UHGV virus genome: UHGV-1836508
Direction: 5' to 3' (one strand)
DNA from: a virus
DNA: 41,013 nt
Positions 25,425 through 40,777 of this stretch are shown here, one piece after another; position 1 is the first letter of the stretch; each line of letters begins with the position of its first letter. The notes under the pieces were generated by a model. It was given only the letters and a program-made list of their open reading frames with translations, had not been told where the DNA came from and ran no database searches. The translations under genes were made by a program, and so were the position numbers.

Positions 25425-25443
25425 AGATCCCTCTAAAACACAC

Positions 25444-25463
25444 AGAGCGCGTCCATGCGCTCT
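25444..25463 (-). other. leader hairpin immediately upstream of the terminase small subunit RBS
   Basis: AGAGCGC-gtccat-GCGCTCT, 15-20 nt before the SD. Confidence 0.5.
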
Positions 25464-25507
25464 AAAACAACTTGTTTACTGCATCTGCTAACCAACTTGT
25501 TTTCTGG
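25464..25507 (-). promoter_or_regulatory. two copies of the shared palindromic leader element (AAACAAGTTGTTT type) upstream of the terminase genes
   Basis: Plus strand aaaacaacttgttta (25464-25478) and accaacttgttttctgg (25491-25507); same element as in the early-gene leaders. Confidence 0.5.
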
Positions 25508-32635: not shown

Positions 32636-33157
32636 ATGGTTAAAGACATCACCTACGGCATACCGGCTGAAGTCTGGCCGCGAGACTACGAACATGCTGA
32701 AAACATACTTATGTTCTGGCGGAAGAACAACATTCCTGTAAGAGTCACGCTTGAAGACGGTCAGGTGTTTTGCATGTACGTTCAGGGGACAATGCCTTCC
32801 CGCAATAAGCTAGATTTATGCCCGCTTCCATATGATAAAGAAAATCGTATAAGACTCCCACTTGAGCGCATTAGCACAATTGAATCAGGTGTAATCGATG
32901 GCATTGCTCGCGAGTTCAAAGGTAGGCTAACAATACATCCAGACTATGTTGACAATCAGCCATCACGCCGTGACTTTTTTGCGATATGTCGCAAGGCTTA
33001 TCAAAACGACCAATCTATAAGGGTCTACATGACAGACGGTCGTGAAATAGAAGGGGTGTCAAGAGGCGTTGATGCTTGCCAGGTCACTCTTAAATTAGAA
33101 GACGGCAGAAAAATACTTGTTTTCTTCGATTGGGTTGAACGAATCCTTCCATTTTAA
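32636..33157 (+). CDS. hypothetical protein with two tandem Rof/YaeO-like repeats (possible Rho modulator)
   Basis: Internal duplication …VRVTLEDGQVFCMYVQG…RIRLPLERISTIE / …QVTLKLEDGRKILVFFDWVERI resembling the LTLELKDGE…RLDKITSF pattern of Rof; TATAAT at 32602-32607 upstream. Confidence 0.35.
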   Translation: MVKDITYGIPAEVWPRDYEHAENILMFWRKNNIPVRVTLEDGQVFCMYVQGTMPSRNKLDLCPLPYDKENRIRLPLERISTIESGVIDGIAREFKGRLTIHPDYVDNQPSRRDFFAICRKAYQNDQSIRVYMTDGREIEGVSRGVDACQVTLKLEDGRKILVFFDWVERILPF

Positions 33158-33452: not shown

Positions 33453-34103
33453 ATGACTAACATTATCATTTCTAAAAAGTCCATCATTGAAGCTGCTGCC
33501 ATTGTATCCGACGAGCTGCGCGAAAAAGCAGATCTGGCAACTCAAACATATAACGAACATTATAAAAATGGTACGCACACAAAAGCAGACAAAGCAAATA
33601 TGCAAGCTGCGACCACCAAACTTGCTTACTTCATCAACAACGTCGTAAACGCAGTAGAAGACGAAAAATTGTGCTCTGTTTTCTACTATGCGATCAAAGC
33701 AAGCAAACAAGCGCCAGAAGTATTTTTCCGTGATGCAATGACTAATAGTTATTCTCTGGAAAAACTGGTTTATCTGGTTAAATCCATTAAAGCTGGAAAG
33801 TGTGTTTATTCCGTCGCTGATATGTCCGGATCTCGTGTATTCGCATTAATCGATATGATTAACGACGAGATCGAGACGTTCACAAATGGCGCTGTTTTCG
33901 ATTTAATGAATGAAGCGAAAAAAGCCAACGAAATAAAATTAGACGCAGGATACACTCAAGCCAACCAGCTTATCAATCTTTGCGAACGTCTTGGACTTGT
34001 TGAGAAAGTCAAAGGAATGGGAAGCGCAAAAGCTGGTACGCAGCAATATCGCTTTATTAAAAATGATTTCTATAACTATCTGGCTGATGCTTTCAAAGCG
34101 TAA
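33453..34103 (+). CDS. hypothetical 216-aa protein
   Basis: SD AAGGA before the ATG at 33453; own promoter and terminator; no motif recognised. Confidence 0.55.
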   Translation: MTNIIISKKSIIEAAAIVSDELREKADLATQTYNEHYKNGTHTKADKANMQAATTKLAYFINNVVNAVEDEKLCSVFYYAIKASKQAPEVFFRDAMTNSYSLEKLVYLVKSIKAGKCVYSVADMSGSRVFALIDMINDEIETFTNGAVFDLMNEAKKANEIKLDAGYTQANQLINLCERLGLVEKVKGMGSAKAGTQQYRFIKNDFYNYLADAFKA

Positions 34104-34116
34104 TTAATGGAATCTG

Positions 34117-34137
34117 GCGCCCACTATGGGCGCTTTT
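34117..34137 (+). terminator. hairpin terminator (partial, read-through to next gene likely)
   Basis: GCGCCCA-cta-TGGGCGC followed by TTTT, then SD AAGGAG of the next gene. Confidence 0.6.
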
Positions 34138-34150
34138 AAGGAGCTTAATC

Positions 34151-34381
34151 ATGTTTATTCTTATCGCTGGCGTTAACGTGCGCAATGAATATTTTGTTAA
34201 TCGCATCGCTGGGATCGCTGGTTACGCTGGGCGCTCAGTCGAGTTTATCGATGAAACAACGCGTAAAATTGATTTATTGAGCGACCAGGAGCGAAAAAAA
34301 GCAGACGTGAACGACGCTGATATATTTTTAATGTTAAAAGCGTTTGTAGAAATGGGATTTAAAATCAGTTTACACAAATAA
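34151..34381 (+). CDS. hypothetical 76-aa protein
   Basis: SD AAGGAG 7 nt upstream; followed by a strong terminator. Confidence 0.5.
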   Translation: MFILIAGVNVRNEYFVNRIAGIAGYAGRSVEFIDETTRKIDLLSDQERKKADVNDADIFLMLKAFVEMGFKISLHK

Positions 34382-34387
34382 AATCGA

Positions 34388-34410
34388 GCGCCCATAGTGG
34401 GCGCTTTTTT
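34388..34410 (+). terminator. intrinsic terminator
   Basis: GCGCCCA-tag-TGGGCGC then TTTTTT; exact reverse complement of the hairpin at 34117-34133. Confidence 0.8.
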
Positions 34411-34434
34411 CGTTTCCAATACTCCCACCATAAC

Positions 34435-34456
34435 GCGCCAATGATGGCGCTTTTTT
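34435..34456 (+). terminator. second tandem intrinsic terminator
   Basis: GCGCCA-atga-TGGCGC then TTTTTT; further weaker GC hairpins follow to about 34580. Confidence 0.65.
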
Positions 34457-34758
34457 ATTGTCTTTGACTCACTCCAACAACATAAAAATAAGCGCCAAAA
34501 TAACGCCATAGACGCGCTTTTATATCCTTACCAGTACATACCCATTACTTAGCGCATTAACGCGCTTAAATCGCGTTATATTGCGTTATGGTGTATGGTT
34601 AATCATTGGCTTTTATTCTTGCTATGTGATCCGCGTTTATTTGTCGGCGCAGATCGGCATTTTGTGTTGTTCTGTGTCCGCTCGCATATGATTGCCACGT
34701 TGGGCAACGTGTACGCGCTTACAGTGATTTACCCACGGATTCACATAATCACATAGCG

Positions 34759-34995
34759 AAAGCTATCTGGATGGCCCAGGGGCTGAAACCCCCACCAGCG
34801 ATACCCCAGCGCCGCTACGCAATTTCTGGCGCGATTCCGGGTTTCTCCCGCTCAGTTTTCTACATAAAGGCGACCCCCGCCGTTTCCCGAAAAAATCCTG
34901 GCCGTTTCCCGTCGGCTCATGAATACGTTCCTCGCCGTTTCTGAAAATTTCCCTGCGGCAGCTGGTGGCTATAGAGAAAGGGCCGTTTCTGGCCC
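34759..34995. repeat. iteron array 1: about 6-8 direct repeats of (G)CCGTTTCC(C)-type units
   Basis: gccgtttcccgaaaaaa (34878), gccgtttcccgtcgg (34901), cgccgtttctgaaaat (34933), tttccctgcgg (34950), gccgtttctggccc (34982) plus degenerate copies; non-coding. Confidence 0.75.
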
Positions 34996-35004
34996 TCTTC
35001 TCAG

Positions 35005-35487
35005 TTACACGCCATCAAGGATGTGGATGCGGTTGCTTGCGTATACATTCAGCATAAAGTTAGCGCAAAACAGTTTCCATGTATCAACGCCAGCGGTATA
35101 CGTAATGTTTTTGCATTTAATCGCATTGTTGGCGATCCGCATCCCCTGCGATACTGCTTCATCGTCGGAAAATTTGAACGACGATTGAGTTTTAATCCAG
35201 ACAGAAATCTGCGTAGCGAACTCAATCAGCTTGGACTGGCAGAATCGCCCGGAGCGCACCGGAAAGACGAACGTTCCGAATCCAGAATTTACCACATACG
35301 CTTTCTCAAATACCCGCGAGTAACGACGATTGCCAATGATGTCGCGTGCAATAATGCATTTTTCTTGTGCTGACAGTTCTACCGTCTCATTGTCGCGCCA
35401 TGCACCAAGTACTCGTTTTTCAATGTCAGAGAACGTTACAGCGATATTGCCATGTGCGGGTGCGTTTACAGTAGCGATAAAATTCAT
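35005..35487 (-). CDS. hypothetical 160-aa early-cassette protein A
   Basis: ATG with SD AAGGAAA; own promoter and shared leader element. Confidence 0.6.
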   Translation of the reverse strand: MNFIATVNAPAHGNIAVTFSDIEKRVLGAWRDNETVELSAQEKCIIARDIIGNRRYSRVFEKAYVVNSGFGTFVFPVRSGRFCQSKLIEFATQISVWIKTQSSFKFSDDEAVSQGMRIANNAIKCKNITYTAGVDTWKLFCANFMLNVYASNRIHILDGV

Positions 35488-35508
35488 GATTATTTCCTTA
35501 TCGTAAAT

Positions 35509-35562
35509 AACAAATTGTTTTCTTGTTGGTGTTAATTATCGTTGTACGAATAAGGCGTCAAA
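35509..35562 (-). promoter_or_regulatory. promoter (TTGACG - 15 bp - GATAAT) plus conserved leader element for gene A
   Basis: Minus strand reads TTGACGccttattcgtacaacGATAATtaACACCAACAAGAAAACAATTTGTT, then SD and ATG. Confidence 0.55.
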
Positions 35563-35662
35563 GTGGAAAGTTGCGGTAGCCGGACGAGAACAGGTGGGTT
35601 TGTCGGTTGCCTGGAGGTAAGAGGTTGGTGTTTTTAGCCTGCGGGAAACAGGATGGTCATTT

Positions 35663-35686
35663 AAGGCCACCAGCATTGGTGGCCTT
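35663..35686 (-). terminator. hairpin (terminator or processing site) after gene B; contains a Chi octamer
   Basis: AAGGCCACCA-gcat-TGGTGGCCTT; near-identical copy at 36134-36157. Confidence 0.45.
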
Positions 35687-35691
35687 AGTCT

Positions 35692-35973
35692 TTAGTGGAG
35701 CAGACCGATGTCGATGGTATCCCCTGAATCATCCACACGGATCATCAGCATGGCGAAGGCGTTTAGTGGATAGCTTGCGTGCCATTCAGGGAAGCGGTCA
35801 TCTCGCATGAAGTCGGCAATGTCGTAAACGCATCCCTCAAAGTGGAAGAATCGCGTGCTTACCTGCTCGTCATAATCCACATGATCCATTTCTTGCTGTT
35901 CTGTTTCCGGCAAGTCCAGCCATGATTCAAGGAATACATTTTGTGCTTTAGGGGTAATGGTGAAATCAGTCAT
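35692..35973 (-). CDS. small strongly acidic early-cassette protein B (93 aa; DNA-mimic-like composition)
   Basis: ATG at 35973 with SD GAGGA (the longer track ORF has no SD). About 22 Asp/Glu against about 5 Lys/Arg. Shares a D(I/A)ADFM(R/D) segment with gene F. Confidence 0.55.
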   Translation of the reverse strand: MTDFTITPKAQNVFLESWLDLPETEQQEMDHVDYDEQVSTRFFHFEGCVYDIADFMRDDRFPEWHASYPLNAFAMLMIRVDDSGDTIDIGLLH

Positions 35974-35992
35974 GAGCATATCCTCACTGCGT

Positions 35993-36024
35993 AAACATGT
36001 TGTTTTCTTGTTGGTGTAATTATC
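35993..36024 (-). promoter_or_regulatory. -10 GATAAT plus conserved leader element for gene B
   Basis: Minus strand GCGATAATtACACCAACAAGAAAACAACATGTTTAC. Confidence 0.5.
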
Positions 36025-36133
36025 GCAGTGTAGATAAGGCATAAAAGAAGTTAATACAGGCTGAATACACAAGAAAGGTTCTGGAAGTTGATAGCCAGGT
36101 TTCAAACTAACCTTCGGTTATTAAAAGTCATTT

Positions 36134-36157
36134 AAGACCACCAATGCTGGTGGCCTT
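36134..36157 (-). terminator. hairpin (terminator or processing site), inverted copy of the 35663 element; contains a Chi octamer
   Basis: AAGACCACCA-atgc-TGGTGGCCTT, followed on the minus strand by a U-rich tract. Confidence 0.45.
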
Positions 36158-36308
36158 AATAATTATCGCCCGATTACGCTAAGGATCTTTTCCTCAACTG
36201 ATTTGTTGTTGCGACTAAACTGCCTTGCGTATCTGATGACAGAAGAGGCGTTTTGCTTTCTGACCATCTCGGCTCTTTCCTTCAGGCGTTTCTTGAAATC
36301 GCCCATAT

Positions 36309-36683
36309 TTACCACCAGGCGCAGAAGGTCAGTCTGTTATTGTGAAAGTCGTGGTTCTTAATCAGATCTTCCACAAGCTCTTTCAACTCCCCCACATCAT
36401 GCCAGTAACCTTCATCGTACTCCTGACTGCCGAAGAAAAAACCTTCCCGGGTAGGCAAGTACTCTTCGCAATTACTTTCGTTTATGTGCATCAAATGAGC
36501 CTTCAGAAAACAAATGTCATTCATCGTTAATTCTAAAAGCTCACAATTTTCGACTTCACCTACGTTGCGCTCCATCCACCCAACGAGCGCATTGAACTTA
36601 CGGAAGTAAGCAACCCGCTTTCTGGATGCCTCGTTATTCAGATCGTTTTTAGGCTGTGTCTCGATATAGATATCAAGTCCCAT
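36309..36683 (-). CDS. hypothetical acidic early-cassette protein C (124 aa)
   Basis: ATG at 36683 with SD AAGGAA; track start 36725 is GTG without SD. Confidence 0.55.
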   Translation of the reverse strand: MGLDIYIETQPKNDLNNEASRKRVAYFRKFNALVGWMERNVGEVENCELLELTMNDICFLKAHLMHINESNCEEYLPTREGFFFGSQEYDEGYWHDVGELKELVEDLIKNHDFHNNRLTFCAWW

Positions 36684-36737
36684 GATGGTTTCCTTATTAA
36701 GTTGCTTCAGTGAAATCATTTTCACAAATCAGATAAG

Positions 36738-36760
36738 GCAGAAAACAAATTGTTATCGGG
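36738..36760 (-). promoter_or_regulatory. conserved leader/operator element upstream of gene C, in inverted orientation
   Basis: Plus strand gcagaaaacaaattgttatcggg. Confidence 0.4.
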
Positions 36761-36768
36761 CTTAATAA

Positions 36769-36791
36769 AATGGCGCGGTTTACGCGCCATT
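36769..36791 (-). terminator. intrinsic terminator after gene D
   Basis: AATGGCGCG-gttta-CGCGCCATT then TTATT on the minus strand. Confidence 0.65.
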
Positions 36792-36800
36792 TAAAGAGGA

Positions 36801-37196
36801 TTAAGCGAATACGCTTTCAGGGATTAAGGTGTCGGCAGGAATGCCAGAGGTAATGCGCAGGCCGTACTGACCAATCCAGGTAGTGTTGGTATTCAGGTTG
36901 GAGGCGAATACGGTGTTAACCATATTCATCATGGTTTCAAACACCTCTTCATCAACCTGGCGGAAGTAGTTCTCGATTTTCAGCAGCAGCGGGTCAGTTG
37001 CATCGAGAATGGACTGGTATTGAGTCGCGTACTCGCCGTCGGAGGCATCACCTTTACGCACGATCGTACTGGCCTGGACTTCGGCACCAGTTTCGGTGTT
37101 GTACGTAACAACGGTGATTTTTGCCACATTCTTACCTTCGGCGGTTTCAGAGGCATAGTAAACATCAACTGTCAGTTTTTCGCGTTTAACGGTCAT
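36801..37196 (-). CDS. hypothetical 131-aa early-cassette protein D
   Basis: ATG at 37196 with SD GGAGAG; own sigma70-like promoter. Confidence 0.55.
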   Translation of the reverse strand: MTVKREKLTVDVYYASETAEGKNVAKITVVTYNTETGAEVQASTIVRKGDASDGEYATQYQSILDATDPLLLKIENYFRQVDEEVFETMMNMVNTVFASNLNTNTTWIGQYGLRITSGIPADTLIPESVFA

Positions 37197-37228
37197 TTCA
37201 CTCTCCGTAGTGTTTTGGTTATTTTTAT

Positions 37229-37257
37229 ATTCTATGATCGTAGGTATGTACTTACAA
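37229..37257 (-). promoter_or_regulatory. sigma70-type promoter for gene D (TTGTAA - 17 bp - TAGAAT)
   Basis: Hexamers read on minus strand; -35 lies within a GTAAGTAC motif. Confidence 0.5.
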
Positions 37258-37266
37258 TACAAAAAA

Positions 37267-37289
37267 AGCCCCGTAAGGATGGCGGGGCT
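37267..37289 (-). terminator. intrinsic terminator after gene E
   Basis: Minus strand AGCCCCGCC-atccttac-GGGGCT followed by TTTTTTT. Confidence 0.8.
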
Positions 37290-37323
37290 GTCGTACTGTC
37301 GACTAATTACCACTTGCACATTA

Positions 37324-37635
37324 TCAGGCTATTGCCATCACTGATGCTCTCTGAATTTCTTGCTGGGCCACGCGGTTAACTTCCATCAAAGCCAGTTCGA
37401 GCTGATGTTCCGGCCACATTCTTTGAAATGCCATCCAGCCTTTTCCACGCTGGCGACGAACATTCATTACATAACGAGTAAAGGTGTTTTTATCGAAAGA
37501 CACCGCTGTTTCACGGAACAGACGAATAGAGGTTCCATTGGCAACGATGTCCAGCAAAGTTAATTGAGCAACCAGCGCAGGCTTCTCTTTTCTCTTCTGG
37601 TCTTTGTCCAGACCAAGAACCAATGATTTTTTCAT
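37324..37635 (-). CDS. small basic early-cassette protein E (103 aa; possible nucleic-acid-binding regulator)
   Basis: ATG at 37635 with SD GGAG; Lys/Arg-rich. Confidence 0.5.
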   Translation of the reverse strand: MKKSLVLGLDKDQKRKEKPALVAQLTLLDIVANGTSIRLFRETAVSFDKNTFTRYVMNVRRQRGKGWMAFQRMWPEHQLELALMEVNRVAQQEIQRASVMAIA

Positions 37636-37646
37636 CACAACTCCGT

Positions 37647-37681
37647 AAACAACTTGTTTTCTCAATGGCGTAAATAATACC
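37647..37681 (-). promoter_or_regulatory. -10-like TATTAT plus conserved leader element for gene E
   Basis: Minus strand GGTATTATttacgccattGAGAAAACAAGTTGTTTAC. Confidence 0.45.
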
Positions 37682-37789
37682 AGTAAGAAAACGGCTACAA
37701 AGCATATTGATCAGGCGCATGAGCGATATGCAGGTTCTTCCCTGCGGCTACAGATTAAGTTAAGCCAGCATTGCTGGCTTTGGTTGGGA

Positions 37790-38119
37790 TTACGCGATTA
37801 CCTCAAGAAACTCCTGAACGTCCCAATGCTGGACGAGGTGAAGATAGACCTTAGAAATCACGTCATTTTCGCTATCGCATGTGAAGTAGTACTTCTGGCT
37901 GCGGTTGTATGTGTCCACACAAAATTCGCTCATATCCATAAAGTCAGCATCTTCACCCATGTCGCAAATCATCAAAGCAGGTGCGTCATCACGAGTCATC
38001 AGCTCAAGCACCCACCGCGAATTGATCAGAGTGGAAGACCAACCTTCTAACTCATAAAACTGATCAAACTCTTTTTGAGTTAATTTCTTGATTTGGTTGA
38101 TGTCGATATTTGCAAACAT
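37790..38119 (-). CDS. small strongly acidic early-cassette protein F (109 aa; paralogue-like to B)
   Basis: ATG at 38119 with SD AAGGA; net charge about -15; EDADFMDMSEF segment resembles gene B. Confidence 0.55.
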   Translation of the reverse strand: MFANIDINQIKKLTQKEFDQFYELEGWSSTLINSRWVLELMTRDDAPALMICDMGEDADFMDMSEFCVDTYNRSQKYYFTCDSENDVISKVYLHLVQHWDVQEFLEVIA

Positions 38120-38132
38120 AAAGCAATCCTTA

Positions 38133-38165
38133 AACAACATGTTTTCTTGATGGTGTTATTATCGC
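38133..38165 (-). promoter_or_regulatory. -10 GATAAT plus conserved leader element for gene F
   Basis: Minus strand GCGATAATAACACCATCAAGAAAACATGTTGTTTAAGG. Confidence 0.5.
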
Positions 38166-38479
38166 AATAACGCACAAGCGAAAAAGGATTTTATTCCGGT
38201 GAATGTGGTTTTGGCAGTGAGTTTTCAGGTTCAGTACCGAGAACACTTTTTACATTATTCTGATTTAGTGGCCGAAGGTGGCTGGTGGGCAGAATAATCC
38301 TCTCCCCGAAAACCTACTGAAATCGATTGTGACCCGTTGGCTGTCTGGCACAATTACGCTGTAGCTGGGCATTCAGAGGGAATCCAGCGGTAAGTAAGTT
38401 CGCCTGCACGTGAGCGTCTCTCTTCTTCCCGCACATTACAGGTGGGTAGCCGCAACTCTCCCTCTCGCTATACCGGTAC

Positions 38480-38662
38480 GCCGCCGTTCCTGAACCGGCA
38501 TCGAGCCTTTTCCCGAAATCCACACAGGCAACTCGACCGTTTCCCTGAAAATCCCCAGCCGTTCCCCGAAGGCAATCCAGCCGTTTCTGTAGCGGGATGC
38601 AGCCTTTTCCCTGCGGCGACGCTCCCGTTCCTGAAAATGGACATAGCCTTTTCCCTGGATGG
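38480..38662. repeat. iteron array 2: eight direct repeats of (A)GCCGTTTCCCTGAAAA-type units at 20-23 bp spacing
   Basis: Copies start at about 38484, 38504, 38537, 38557, 38578, 38601, 38624 and 38645; the region has only low-complexity ORFs. Confidence 0.8.
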
Positions 38663-38699
38663 CCCGAAGGCTGACCGAAGGGGTGGAAATAGGCGTTAC

Positions 38700-39690
38700 G
38701 GGGGACGAAAATTATGGCTTGAATTTATACGAAGAAAGTAGCGATACCCCTCCTTCCCTTCCCACTTATACCTCCCACGAATTTTCTCTCTTATGTGGGC
38801 ATAAACCTTCCCTCTGATAACGCTCTATACGGCGAGTATTCCTTTGGGTGAAATGGGTGGTTTGTTCTTTCTACCGGCATATGTGGTTTCGTTCTTCTTG
38901 AGGTGGTTCTTCTCTGTGTTTTCGTCTGGGTTGTTCTCGTCGTTTTGGTGACTGTTCTTCTCCGTGTATGGAGTAATGGCAGGTGGGCGATTGCTTTCGT
39001 TATTGTGTTTGAGTTGTTTGTCTGGAGTGCGTGAAGGGCTTTTGTAGTTATTCGTGTATTGGGTAATGGCGTTTCCCGTGATTGTTATGTTTCGTGTCTT
39101 TTGGGATTGAGAGAAACCTTGCGGTTACAGGCTTCGTTGGGGTTTCAGTGATTCTGGTGTTTCTTCGCTGTTTGGGTAATGGCGTGTCGTGGGTATCGCG
39201 CGTATGGAAGTTTCGAATTGCCTGTGAAAGTTAGGTTGGTTGTCCGGTAGCCTGGGAAGAAGAGGTGGGTCTTTTCGGTAGCCTGCCATAAAGAGGTTGG
39301 TTGTTTTTGGTAATGGCATATGTGTTATTTAGTTGTTTTGTTATACCTGAAAATAAGTTGTTTATATGGTTGTGTAACGCAACGGGAGCGATTTTGAGCG
39401 TGTGTTTTTGTTGGTAGTGTGTTGAGTCGTCTGTGGTGAAATTTGGACGCTGTGGCGCTATCTGCTGCGTGGGATTACGGGTATAAGAAGTGATGTGTGA
39501 AAACGTCAATTTTTTAGACCAAATCGGGTGAAAGCGTTGACATTTCGTTGATCTGTTGTTCAGTTGTTTTCTTATTGGTATAAACAACTATAACCTATTG
39601 ATATTTAAGGATGTGATTGCAGGTATAGAATGGGGGTAGTGGCGATCAACGGATTCTTATAGAAAAGAATCAAATTGTGACCGCCATTAT
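38700..39690. other. ~1-kb GT-rich (plus strand) non-coding tract with dispersed GGTAATGGC repeats
   Basis: No plus-strand ORF of 60 aa or more; minus-strand ORFs are low-complexity with TTG start; GGTAATGGC-like motif at about 38965, 39063, 39175 and 39309. Confidence 0.6.
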
Positions 39691-39697
39691 CAATGTT

Positions 39698-40432
39698 TTA
39701 CTTAGTTTTGTTTAGCAGAGAGAGAATTTCATCACTAATTTCACTCGCCTGTTTGATAGCCAATGCAGTTACCTCTTCTATGGTTGGTGACTGTTGATGC
39801 TCATGTTTGGTTTCAGTTATGACAATGTGTTCTTCACCTGAATTTGCGCATAGTGCCGCATTGACTATAAGGTTTGAGTAAGAATTTAGCAGAGCACTGT
39901 TGATAAACGCTTTCACGGTATTACTGTCTGCACCAAATACATCTTTTCTGACCGCTTCAGCCTCACAGCGAACCCCTGCAGCAACATCGTGAAGAACATG
40001 TATGGCCTTGGGGCTTGTTTGTTCACAGTACTCAATCATTATTGTCGAATTGTTCTGTTCAACAAATGATCTGATGCCTGACGATTCACCCATAGCATCG
40101 AAGGCAGCGTGACCCGCACTAGTAGAGATATCTTCATAGAGTTCTTCATCGCTATCTTTTTCTTCAGGTGTCGAGGTGTCTTCATCGTCGTAATAGATAT
40201 TGCCTTTAATCAGTGTTTTGGACACTTGATATAAACAATAAGAGACAAGATTTAAGCATTGGATTTTAGCTGTATTGTCCTTTGTCGCCTCGCTCTTCAG
40301 TTCTTTCGCTTCTTCAGTAAGGCTGTTGATAAGACTTTGTATTTTTTCCAACGCGTTAGGTGCACACTCAGCGTTGTCCATAAAGAATTTATAACCAGTC
40401 CCAGGGATTTCTAAACTTTTCAACTTTTTCAT
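39698..40432 (-). CDS. hypothetical 244-aa protein
   Basis: ATG start with SD-like AGGAT upstream; acidic central region; no motif recognised. Confidence 0.55.
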   Translation of the reverse strand: MKKLKSLEIPGTGYKFFMDNAECAPNALEKIQSLINSLTEEAKELKSEATKDNTAKIQCLNLVSYCLYQVSKTLIKGNIYYDDEDTSTPEEKDSDEELYEDISTSAGHAAFDAMGESSGIRSFVEQNNSTIMIEYCEQTSPKAIHVLHDVAAGVRCEAEAVRKDVFGADSNTVKAFINSALLNSYSNLIVNAALCANSGEEHIVITETKHEHQQSPTIEEVTALAIKQASEISDEILSLLNKTK

Positions 40433-40477: not shown

Positions 40478-40777
40478 TTACCAGTTCCAGCACTCAAGCC
40501 CTTCAACAACCGGTGCGCCACAATCAAAATGTACAGAGTCAAAGCCTACATCAAGTACCTTCTGAATGTTCGAAATCGCGCCCTCGGATATACCATATCG
40601 ACGCAAGTTATCTTTCCAGTCATCGTCCTGTAACCCGGCGTGAACTATGCAACCGTACTCAATTTGTGAAACCCAATCCAGCTCATTGCTTGCGATCATG
40701 AATCGGCGAGCATCTTCCTCTGATGTATGAGATGAACTGATCAATGCCACCTGGTAGGATTGAGTAATATTTAACAT
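40478..40777 (-). CDS. hypothetical 99-aa acidic protein
   Basis: ORF overlapping the upstream gene stop; no motif recognised. Confidence 0.5.
   Translation of the reverse strand: MLNITQSYQVALISSSHTSEEDARRFMIASNELDWVSQIEYGCIVHAGLQDDDWKDNLRRYGISEGAISNIQKVLDVGFDSVHFDCGAPVVEGLECWNW

Follow-up and report, generated by a model that had tools for sequence, protein, structure and literature searches.

The operators of C1 in P1 are asymmetric 17-mers that are dispersed over the genome of this phage-plasmid. Here, we describe a locus with a related layout in the virus genome UHGV-1836508, of which a stretch of 41,013 nucleotides, referred to as the window, was analyzed. The stretch belongs to an SSU5-type phage-plasmid, an element class of about 108 kb, and the locus is an island of seven minus-strand open reading frames (ORFs) that form six units, namely A, B, C together with an ORF of 47 amino acids (aa), D, E, and F. 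Similar to the C1 regulon, one short operator appears to be reused at many replication, packaging, and accessory promoters, with about 17 intergenic sites here. On the other hand, the site of the island is palindromic, unrelated in sequence to that of C1, and absent from the putative immunity region, and it would presumably act in repression.

Other described systems resemble parts of the island. Lambdoid prophage morons likewise have their own promoter-like element and a hairpin, and they are present or absent independently of each other among relatives. However, classical morons are expressed from the repressed prophage, while most units of the island are near background and carry the operator of lytic genes. 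The early small-gene arrays of large lytic phages, for example, T4-like ones, come to mind as distant members of the family of protein B are found in long same-strand runs of ORFans, but the island is situated in a temperate phage-plasmid and its genes have their own operator-controlled promoters. The DNA mimics Ocr and ArdA are, like proteins B and F, small, soluble, strongly acidic, encoded by mobile elements, and separately expressed. The fold of Ocr, an all-alpha elongated dimer that mimics bent B-DNA, is unlike that of the beta-rich model of B. Finally, PMC2652032 and the titles of references in PMC3378880 indicate that FljA acts post-transcriptionally on fliC. The element also encodes a full-length FljA-family protein, and in most units the palindrome is placed in the presumed 5' leader near the Shine-Dalgarno (SD) sequence; in contrast to the FljA–fliC pair, the match of the fliC leader is weak and the geometry of the island sites suits DNA binding better.

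Across its 3.4 kb, the island region shares 99% identity with plasmid pLF82 of E. coli LF82, which is also deposited as phage Cyrano, and 95–99% identity with about 190 other Escherichia/Shigella plasmids in PLSDB. Both the Cyrano and the RefSeq annotations name all island genes 'hypothetical protein', and so do the clusters of a large protein collection. Hundreds of database records already contain the element and its genes. As a feature, the island is ordinary and of a familiar type, namely, a variable region of small accessory genes in a temperate phage, and the element has been well sampled. What appears to be undescribed in the searchable literature is the shared operator with its regulon, the turnover of units mediated by hairpins, and the assignment of B to a large family without a name, the fold of which is absent from the solved structures. 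SSU5-type phage-plasmids are very frequent in clinical Enterobacteriaceae and also carry resistance genes, and their regulation is essentially unstudied. In practical terms, the analysis yields a testable operator sequence, a hotspot of small-gene exchange, and the recognition of the B family.

Putative operator modules and boundaries of the units

Repeat analysis identified a 55-nt module that is present in four copies, upstream of A, B, E, and F. In the sense direction, the module consists of a -35-like hexamer, 15 nt, GATAAT or TATTAT, about 10 nt (nACACCAACA), the palindrome AGAAAACAnnnTGTTTA, the SD sequence, and ATG. The palindrome is 17 bp in length (AGAAAACAAnTTGTTTA) and in these four units it is located just ahead of the ribosome-binding site. 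In C the palindrome is inverted (Table 1), an arrangement also seen upstream of CYRAN_93 and CYRAN_101 of Cyrano. Because the spacer of the shared module is 15 nt, a generic sigma-70 scan found only the promoter of D. The original prediction had described the region as a cassette of small genes, each with its own promoter and a downstream hairpin. This description is well borne out, as its ORFs were recovered at the same coordinates on the minus strand, A, B, E, and F have the module, D has a promoter, and each unit has a hairpin, although the activity of the promoters and terminators is a prediction from the sequence.

To a maximum of two mismatches, the palindrome has nine matches in the window, while 0.49 would be expected, and this number was reached by none of 100 shuffles. 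The full genome of Cyrano (OV696614) contains 22 matches, about 17 of which are intergenic and 10–70 nt upstream of start codons. Besides A, B, C, E, and F, the palindrome heads terS (two copies in tandem), parA, the replicative helicase gene, cobT, CYRAN_58, nrdB, a tciA-like gene, CYRAN_87, CYRAN_93, and CYRAN_101 (two copies). It is conserved upstream of the orthologous SSU5 genes (5 vs. 0.15 expected), it is present in the Klebsiella phage-plasmid pJN2-26 (8 vs. 0.17 expected), and it is also kept in PhiR41_1. Since the palindrome also heads the units of the terminase gene terS, parA, the helicase gene, and the ribonucleotide reductase gene nrdB, the putative operator of the island belongs to a genome-wide regulon rather than to an early class, and it does not bear out the earlier designation of the locus as a typical early host-takeover region.

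At the forward sites, the palindrome is located 7–11 nt past a -10-like hexamer (10–11 nt in A, B, E, and F) and 10–39 nt from the start codon. Four sites are inverted and lie 16–70 nt upstream of the start, with 56–70 nt for C, CYRAN_93, and the first site of CYRAN_101, and the inverted sites of C, CYRAN_93, and CYRAN_101 are apparently upstream of the promoter -10. The palindrome may overlap the core promoter or the start site, either past the predicted -10 hexamers or over a putative -35. A DNA operator for a dimeric protein is favored by this promoter-fixed position, by the inverted upstream sites, and by a dyad symmetry of 15 bp, and the geometry of the sites (at about +1 or at -35) would point to repression.

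A stable hairpin follows directly after every unit, and four of the six fold far better than shuffled sequences (z −3.9 to −5.1). U-tracts are present at the hairpins of D and E and partly at that of A, and they are absent after B, the 47-aa ORF, and F. The hairpin of B and that of the 47-aa ORF are two copies of one element with 96% complementarity. No match was found in an Rfam scan of positions 34000–40000.

The units differ in their distribution. With tblastn against PLSDB, A was found in 801 plasmids of at least eight genera, including Klebsiella, Escherichia, Enterobacter, Yersinia, and Salmonella, B in 652 plasmids (105 Escherichia records vs. 219 for A), and F in 229 plasmids, nearly all from Escherichia/Shigella. 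C was found only in E. coli and some Klebsiella elements, with essentially no homologues outside. SSU5 itself has E, D, B, and A together with other small genes and an antisense 'repressor-like' ORF, and it lacks C, the 47-aa ORF, and F; pJN2-26 is similar to SSU5 and also lacks these three. PhiR41_1 is without exactly one unit, made up of a hairpin, the B promoter, and the B gene, and the 471-nt gap equals the spacing of the duplicated hairpins. As the junction in PhiR41_1 falls inside the duplicated hairpin element, the hairpins appear to double as recombination joints between the units.

Genes and proteins of the island

The genes A, B, D, and E have the same length as their SSU5 orthologues at 54–80% identity, the orthologue of E being SSU5_113. 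The ratio of nonsynonymous to synonymous substitution rates (dN/dS) was 0.126 for A (against SSU5_117) and 0.129 for B, while dS was saturated for D and E. Good SD sequences are found at all island genes just ahead of ATG. Judged from these comparisons, the island genes are real and under purifying selection. For C, the start at 36683 is likelier than that at 36719, because the PHROG profile begins at residue 13 of the long form and the annotation of PhiR41_1 has a 375-nt gene. The 47-aa ORF starts 2 nt past the stop of C and is apparently translationally coupled to it, and its protein cluster has 27 members that are all named hypothetical. C and the 47-aa ORF (net charges −11 and +8) constitute a co-inherited acidic/basic pair.

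The island products are small and soluble proteins without enzymatic signatures, four of them acidic and three basic, and no hydrophobic stretch fitting a transmembrane segment or a signal peptide was found in any of the seven. Among the 128 ORFs of the whole element, B ranks second and F fourth in acidity per residue. Net charges of about −15 to −17 had been given for B and F, and C had been called acidic as well; the value holds for B (−15), that of F is smaller (−13), and C is indeed acidic (−10/−11).

No Pfam match was obtained for any of the seven proteins at E-values up to 1, and NCBIfam and PADLOC gave nothing significant either. The best matches in other libraries had E-values of about 0.02–0.06 only, the matching PHROG families are all of 'unknown function', and no hit from the PDB sequence searches with A, B, C, D, E, and F was accepted. 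The original prediction had refrained from a family assignment, in agreement with these searches of Pfam, NCBIfam, PADLOC, and PDB, which gave no known family, and with the homology searches, which assigned no known function. A PDB match of F to a multicystatin (E = 1e-4) was rejected as spurious, as no stretch of it passed alone. Likewise, the name 'ABC transporter', which has been propagated for B in NCBI and UniRef, is supported by no profile and was taken as an annotation error. Homologues of D occur in other temperate phages of Klebsiella and Proteus, including phiKO2 gp62. F is an orphan with 10 clusters, all at least 74% identical, and thus gave no useful alignment.

Close homologues of B were found in SSU5-type elements only. 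A profile search of 1.84 billion representatives returned 71 sequences at E ≤ 1e-3, which are more distant, 85–105 aa in size, and aligned from end to end, and a second profile search returned at least 1288 clusters, none of them with a Pfam domain. The proteins of this family are about 95–105 aa in size with the consensus TI.TNN.PR..W.ELT.KE..EFDY...FFRYKG.VYDL.EFMR...W.GY.SDS.FSG. Its distant members are encoded in same-strand arrays of 60–120-aa ORFans in large phage contigs, near Phage_DsbA and NAD-salvage genes. The median net charge of the family is −7, compared to −13 to −15 in the SSU5 clade. In this clade, the nearly invariant residues T8, N9, N10, P12, R13, R44, Y45, S74, and G75 of the family are replaced by P, K, A, N, V, H, F, A, and M, respectively, and K46 is also among the replaced polar or basic residues, while E25, D30, F42, F43, Y50, W64, and F73 are retained and the residues of the hydrophobic core are kept. 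The extra acidity of the SSU5-clade B proteins is due to this replacement of nearly invariant polar and basic residues. These proteins are a divergent sub-branch, the function of which may differ from the norm of the family.

The structure of B was modeled with AlphaFold2. The model from a 16-sequence alignment had a predicted local distance difference test score (pLDDT) of 58 and was discarded, and the one from 113 diverse family members (pLDDT 93.2, predicted template modeling score 0.79) was used. It is rich in beta structure, with seven strands and two short helices. Three fold searches found no neighbor of this model among the solved structures, and the matches in BFVD were family members only, two of which superpose on the model with template modeling scores of 0.81–0.86. 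The profile of the B family found nothing in PDB. As the model lacks a neighbor among the solved structures, it does not have the fold of Ocr, ArdA, or Arn.

B and F had been regarded as paralogue-like and as sharing a D(I/A)ADFM segment. Four tests speak against a paralogy. The BLASTP E-value was 3.6, the hhalign probability was 0.08%, and the Smith-Waterman score was below the mean of the shuffles (z = −1.25). The segment itself was misread, since B has DIADFM and F has EDADFM, so that the two agree in ADFM only, and a 6-residue window of at least this similarity is present in 63% of shuffled pairs. The paralogy was therefore rejected. The other pairs of island proteins were unrelated as well in a total of 21 comparisons. 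The closest case was that of the basic proteins A (residues 26–81) and E (residues 6–63), with 29% identity, z = 3.7, and a score reached by 1 of 300 shuffles, a marginal similarity that loses significance once the 21 comparisons are taken into account.

Expression, proposed role, and competing explanations

Expression of the island was assessed from public RNA-seq data of LF82 (Table S1 of PMC9928086), which cover overnight lysogeny broth (LB) and macrophage conditions. In overnight LB, the values were 12.8 for F, 12.2 for E, 17.0 for D, 5.7 for C, 57.9 for the 47-aa ORF, 6.7 for B, and 25.5 for A, with an element median of 9.8. Thus, the 47-aa ORF was at 5.9 times, A at 2.6 times, and D at 1.7 times the median. 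The cut-off of 49 used by the authors for 'morons' was passed in the island by the 47-aa ORF (CYRAN_109) only, and the authors list it as a moron. The signal of the 47-aa ORF is tenfold over that of the upstream gene C (57.9 vs. 5.7); it may have its own promoter, or the excess may come from a stable 3' fragment or a small RNA ending at the strong hairpin. The other palindrome-headed units terS, nrdB, tciA, CYRAN_58, CYRAN_87, CYRAN_93, and CYRAN_101 were near background in the lysogen. In macrophages, F, A, B, and D were up approximately 4- to 30-fold, F most strongly, and the S24-peptidase gene, several toxin-antitoxin genes, and SOS-type genes were also up. Cyrano virions are induced 39-fold by ciprofloxacin. 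This expression pattern fits genes that are off in the plasmid-prophage and on with de-repression.

Based on these observations, we propose that the locus is a modular accessory island of an SSU5-type phage-plasmid, the units of which are under the element's own operator and the products of which are host-takeover or anti-defense binders, a reading that in our opinion has an even chance of being correct as a whole. The island would consist of six autonomous units, each with a promoter, an operator, a ribosome-binding site, a small gene, and a hairpin. A dimeric regulator encoded by the element would bind the palindrome as DNA and repress A, B, C with the 47-aa ORF, E, and F, from a site near the transcript start (about +1) in A, B, E, and F and from an inverted site over the -35 region in C. 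D would be outside this control by virtue of its own sigma-70-type promoter. The island would be silent in the plasmid-prophage and, presumably, turned on with the lytic programme at infection or SOS induction. The products could then bind proteins of the host or of competitors stoichiometrically, and units would be gained and lost through recombination at the shared hairpins. A role in anti-defense or host takeover is plausible, as it fits the size, charge, context, and turnover of the genes. If any of the island genes has such an activity, this would bear on how SSU5-type elements establish themselves in new hosts.

Several observations weigh against this proposal. The palindrome was searched for in the immunity region of CYRAN_45 (a putative repressor) and CYRAN_46, and it was not found there. 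The palindrome-bearing parA operon with CYRAN_29/30 is expressed in the lysogen at 5–9 times the background, and a unit with this site is thus not necessarily silent. Signal in the lysogen also comes from the 47-aa ORF and, more weakly, from A and D. Furthermore, the RNA-seq data are from lysogens only, the hairpins of B, the 47-aa ORF, and F may not terminate as they have no U-tract, and all seven proteins are 'hypothetical' in every database. The divergent CYRAN_45/CYRAN_46 region (OV696614 positions 42600–42800) contains palindromes of the GGTAAG-N2-CTTACC type and a 21-nt direct repeat; these palindromes differ from that of the regulon and probably serve as the primary operators of immunity.

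With regard to the products, lysogenic conversion offers another explanation of the island, according to which the genes are morons expressed from the resident plasmid-prophage, for example, for superinfection exclusion or for defense against incoming phages or plasmids. The autonomous promoter and terminator layout of each unit would agree with it, as would the operator-free sigma-70 promoter of D, the LB signals of the 47-aa ORF, A, and D, the listing of CYRAN_109 as a moron, and the finding that an SSU5-like plasmid in Klebsiella lowers the phage burst of its host and the uptake of plasmids (PMC8969562). However, the latter phenotype was mapped to no gene, PADLOC gave no match, B, C, E, and F are at or near the lysogen background, and the operator of five of the six units also heads lytic genes that are kept silent in the lysogen, such as terS, helicase, and nrdB. 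For the island as such we consider this explanation unlikely, while for D, A, and the 47-aa ORF it is a fair rival. Somewhat less probable still is the idea put forward in the original prediction that B, F, and possibly C counteract restriction as Ocr/ArdA-type DNA mimics, which would be made early and block type I restriction-modification, BREX, or similar DNA-binding systems. It is true that B and F rank within the top four proteins of the element in acidity, that acidity is a family-wide property for B, that the genes are small with their own promoters, that distant relatives of B are found in early-type small-gene arrays of large phages, and that known DNA mimics span many unrelated folds, so that a dissimilar fold is compatible with mimicry. 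Nevertheless, none of the seven proteins matches the Pfam families of Ocr (PF08684), ArdA (PF07275), and ArdB/KlcA (PF03230), nor is there a match in PADLOC or NCBIfam. In addition, no solved mimic resembles the confident beta-rich model of B (pLDDT 93), there is no relationship between B and F, and the extra acidity of the SSU5-clade B proteins arose with the loss of nearly invariant basic and polar residues, which looks like divergence from the usual function of the family.

With regard to control, the palindrome might act not as a DNA operator but in the mRNA leader, as the target of an FljA-family protein that blocks translation. The element encodes a full-length homologue of FljA at a distance of 2 kb from the island, conservation of this gene extends to SSU5 and pJN2-26, the palindrome lies 10–39 nt upstream of the start and adjoins the SD sequence in 12 units, and the fliC leader of Salmonella has CAAGTTGT and GATAAGGAAA..ATCATG in common with the leader of A. 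On the other hand, the position of the motif is fixed to the -10-like hexamer and not to the SD sequence, the inverted sites of C, CYRAN_93, and CYRAN_101 are apparently upstream of the promoter -10, the palindrome as RNA would form only a weak, A-U-rich hairpin of 5 bp, and a 15-bp palindrome is typical of a dimeric DNA-binding protein. The fliC leader scored below 8 bits on the matrix of the phage motif, compared to 21–31 bits for the phage sites, and owing to this weak resemblance it was rejected as a member of the motif. Translational control by the FljA homologue is therefore doubtful in our view; if it were true, the phage would have a regulon run by a homologue of a flagellar translational repressor. 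It could also be argued that the space between the regulatory repeats is merely filled with ORFs that are in decay or without function and are acidic by accident, in view of the narrow distribution of the orphan F, the frameshifted database copies of B and F, and the easy loss of units. This is very improbable given the dN/dS of 0.13 for A and B, the identical lengths at 54–80% identity in SSU5, the at least 1288 clusters and the confident fold of the B family, the presence of A in 801 plasmids of at least eight genera, and the good SD sequences.

The operator-controlled accessory island thus remains the reading we prefer. A bolder version of it would be that the very large B family of small acidic proteins, which has no Pfam model and a fold absent from the solved structures, is a new class of host-takeover or anti-defense proteins, with F, C, and D as further unrelated effectors in a turnover hotspot, and that the palindrome is the operator of an undescribed global regulator, for which the FljA-family protein is one candidate. 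We regard this version as rather improbable and the chance that the B family or the regulon represents new biology as modest.

Neighboring features

The coordinates of the island and of the features around it are collected in Table 1.

Table 1. Coordinates in the 41,013-nt window of the island genes, their promoter and operator modules, the hairpins, and surrounding features.
Feature	Position	Strand	Description
Tandem palindromes of the terS/structural operon	25462..25505	-	Two copies
FljA-family gene (CYRAN_114)	32636..33157	+	PF03614, E = 1e-80; weak Hfq-like C-terminal match; candidate binder of palindrome RNA
Hairpin after A	34974..35002	-	GGGCC stem followed by UUUCUCU; minimum free energy −21 kcal/mol (55-nt stretch)
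Gene A	35005..35487	-	160 aa, basic, isoelectric point (pI) 9.2, net +5, phrog_1641; core island gene
A module	35507..35563	-	TTGACG-15-GATAAT-TAACACCAACA-AGAAAACAATTTGTTAT, SD AAGGA
Iteron-like repeats	35571..35663		Three copies of about 30 nt (cGGTAGCCTG..AAGAGGTTGGT) in the B-A spacer; two related copies at 39241-39307
Hairpin after B	35662..35687	-	11-bp stem, no U-tract, z −4.4; copy of a duplicated 27–39-nt element
Gene B	35692..35973	-	93 aa, net −15, pI 4.1, phrog_1845
B module	35992..36047	-	TTTATG-15-GATAAT-TACACCAACA-AGAAAACAACATGTTTA, SD GAGGA
Hairpin after 47-aa ORF	36132..36159	-	z −5.1; second copy of the duplicated element
47-aa ORF (CYRAN_109)	36163..36306	-	Basic, pI 11, net +8; absent from the original prediction
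Gene C	36309..36683	-	124 aa (136 aa from 36719), net −10/−11, phrog_7971
C operator, inverted	36740..36756		About 14 nt upstream of TGTGAAAAT, extended -10-like; putative promoter
Hairpin after D	36768..36792	-	Terminator-like, 10-bp stem followed by UUUUAUU; z −3.9
Gene D	36801..37196	-	131 aa, net −8, phrog_2473
D promoter	37229..37257	-	Sigma-70-like TTGTAA-17-TAGAAT, without palindrome
Hairpin after E	37261..37289	-	Canonical intrinsic terminator as read from the sequence, GCCCCG stem and seven T
Gene E	37324..37635	-	103 aa, basic, pI 10.5, net +8, phrog_5125
E module	37646..37702	-	TTGTAG-15-TATTAT-TTACGCCATTG-AGAAAACAAGTTGTTTA, SD GGAG
Hairpin after F	37762..37780	-	8-bp stem; related in sequence to the hairpins of B and the 47-aa ORF
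Gene F	37790..38119	-	109 aa, net −13, pI 4.2, phrog_7645; lineage-restricted orphan
F module	38131..38187	-	TTTTCG-15-GATAAT-AACACCATCA-AGAAAACATGTTGTTTA, SD AAGGA

The island is bracketed on both sides by degenerate repeat arrays of the GGGAAACGG / CCGTTTCC type, at positions 34863–34941 and 38478–38655 of the window, and Tandem Repeats Finder detected no significant tandem array. Positions 38250–39650 make up a stretch of about 1.4 kb without RefSeq genes and with a strong strand asymmetry (GC skew +0.29 at 39–40 kb). This stretch contains three copies of GGGTAATGGCG (38958–39188), two copies of CGGTAGCCTG..GGTTGGT (39241–39307), and two weaker copies of the regulon palindrome, at 39348 and approximately 39565. 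The Cyrano ORFs 103 and 104, which are annotated here, show background expression. The stretch is a candidate for an origin, a centromere, or some other region that acts in cis.

The FljA-family protein CYRAN_114, a 'repressor of phase-1 flagellin' homologue, could control phage mRNAs or the flagellin of the host. Downstream of both operators, the leader of terS (positions 25440–25480, minus strand) has a GC-rich hairpin (AGAGCGC-atggac-GCGCTCT) and, after it, GTGTGTTTTAG, with the start of terS about 20 nt further on. The hairpin looks like a terminator or attenuator, which would suggest control of the late operon by antitermination.

Two further acidic proteins are encoded elsewhere in the element. 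CYRAN_59 (OV696614 positions 59105–59380, outside the window) has 91 aa and a net charge of −15 and exceeds all other proteins of the element in acidity per residue. Its sequence is unrelated to B or F, and its upstream neighbor CYRAN_58 is headed by the regulon palindrome. CYRAN_101 (window positions 40478–40777, minus strand) has 99 aa, a net charge of −11, and a C-terminal DUF5983 domain (E = 5e-12), and the two copies of the regulon palindrome upstream of it flank a GATAAT promoter.

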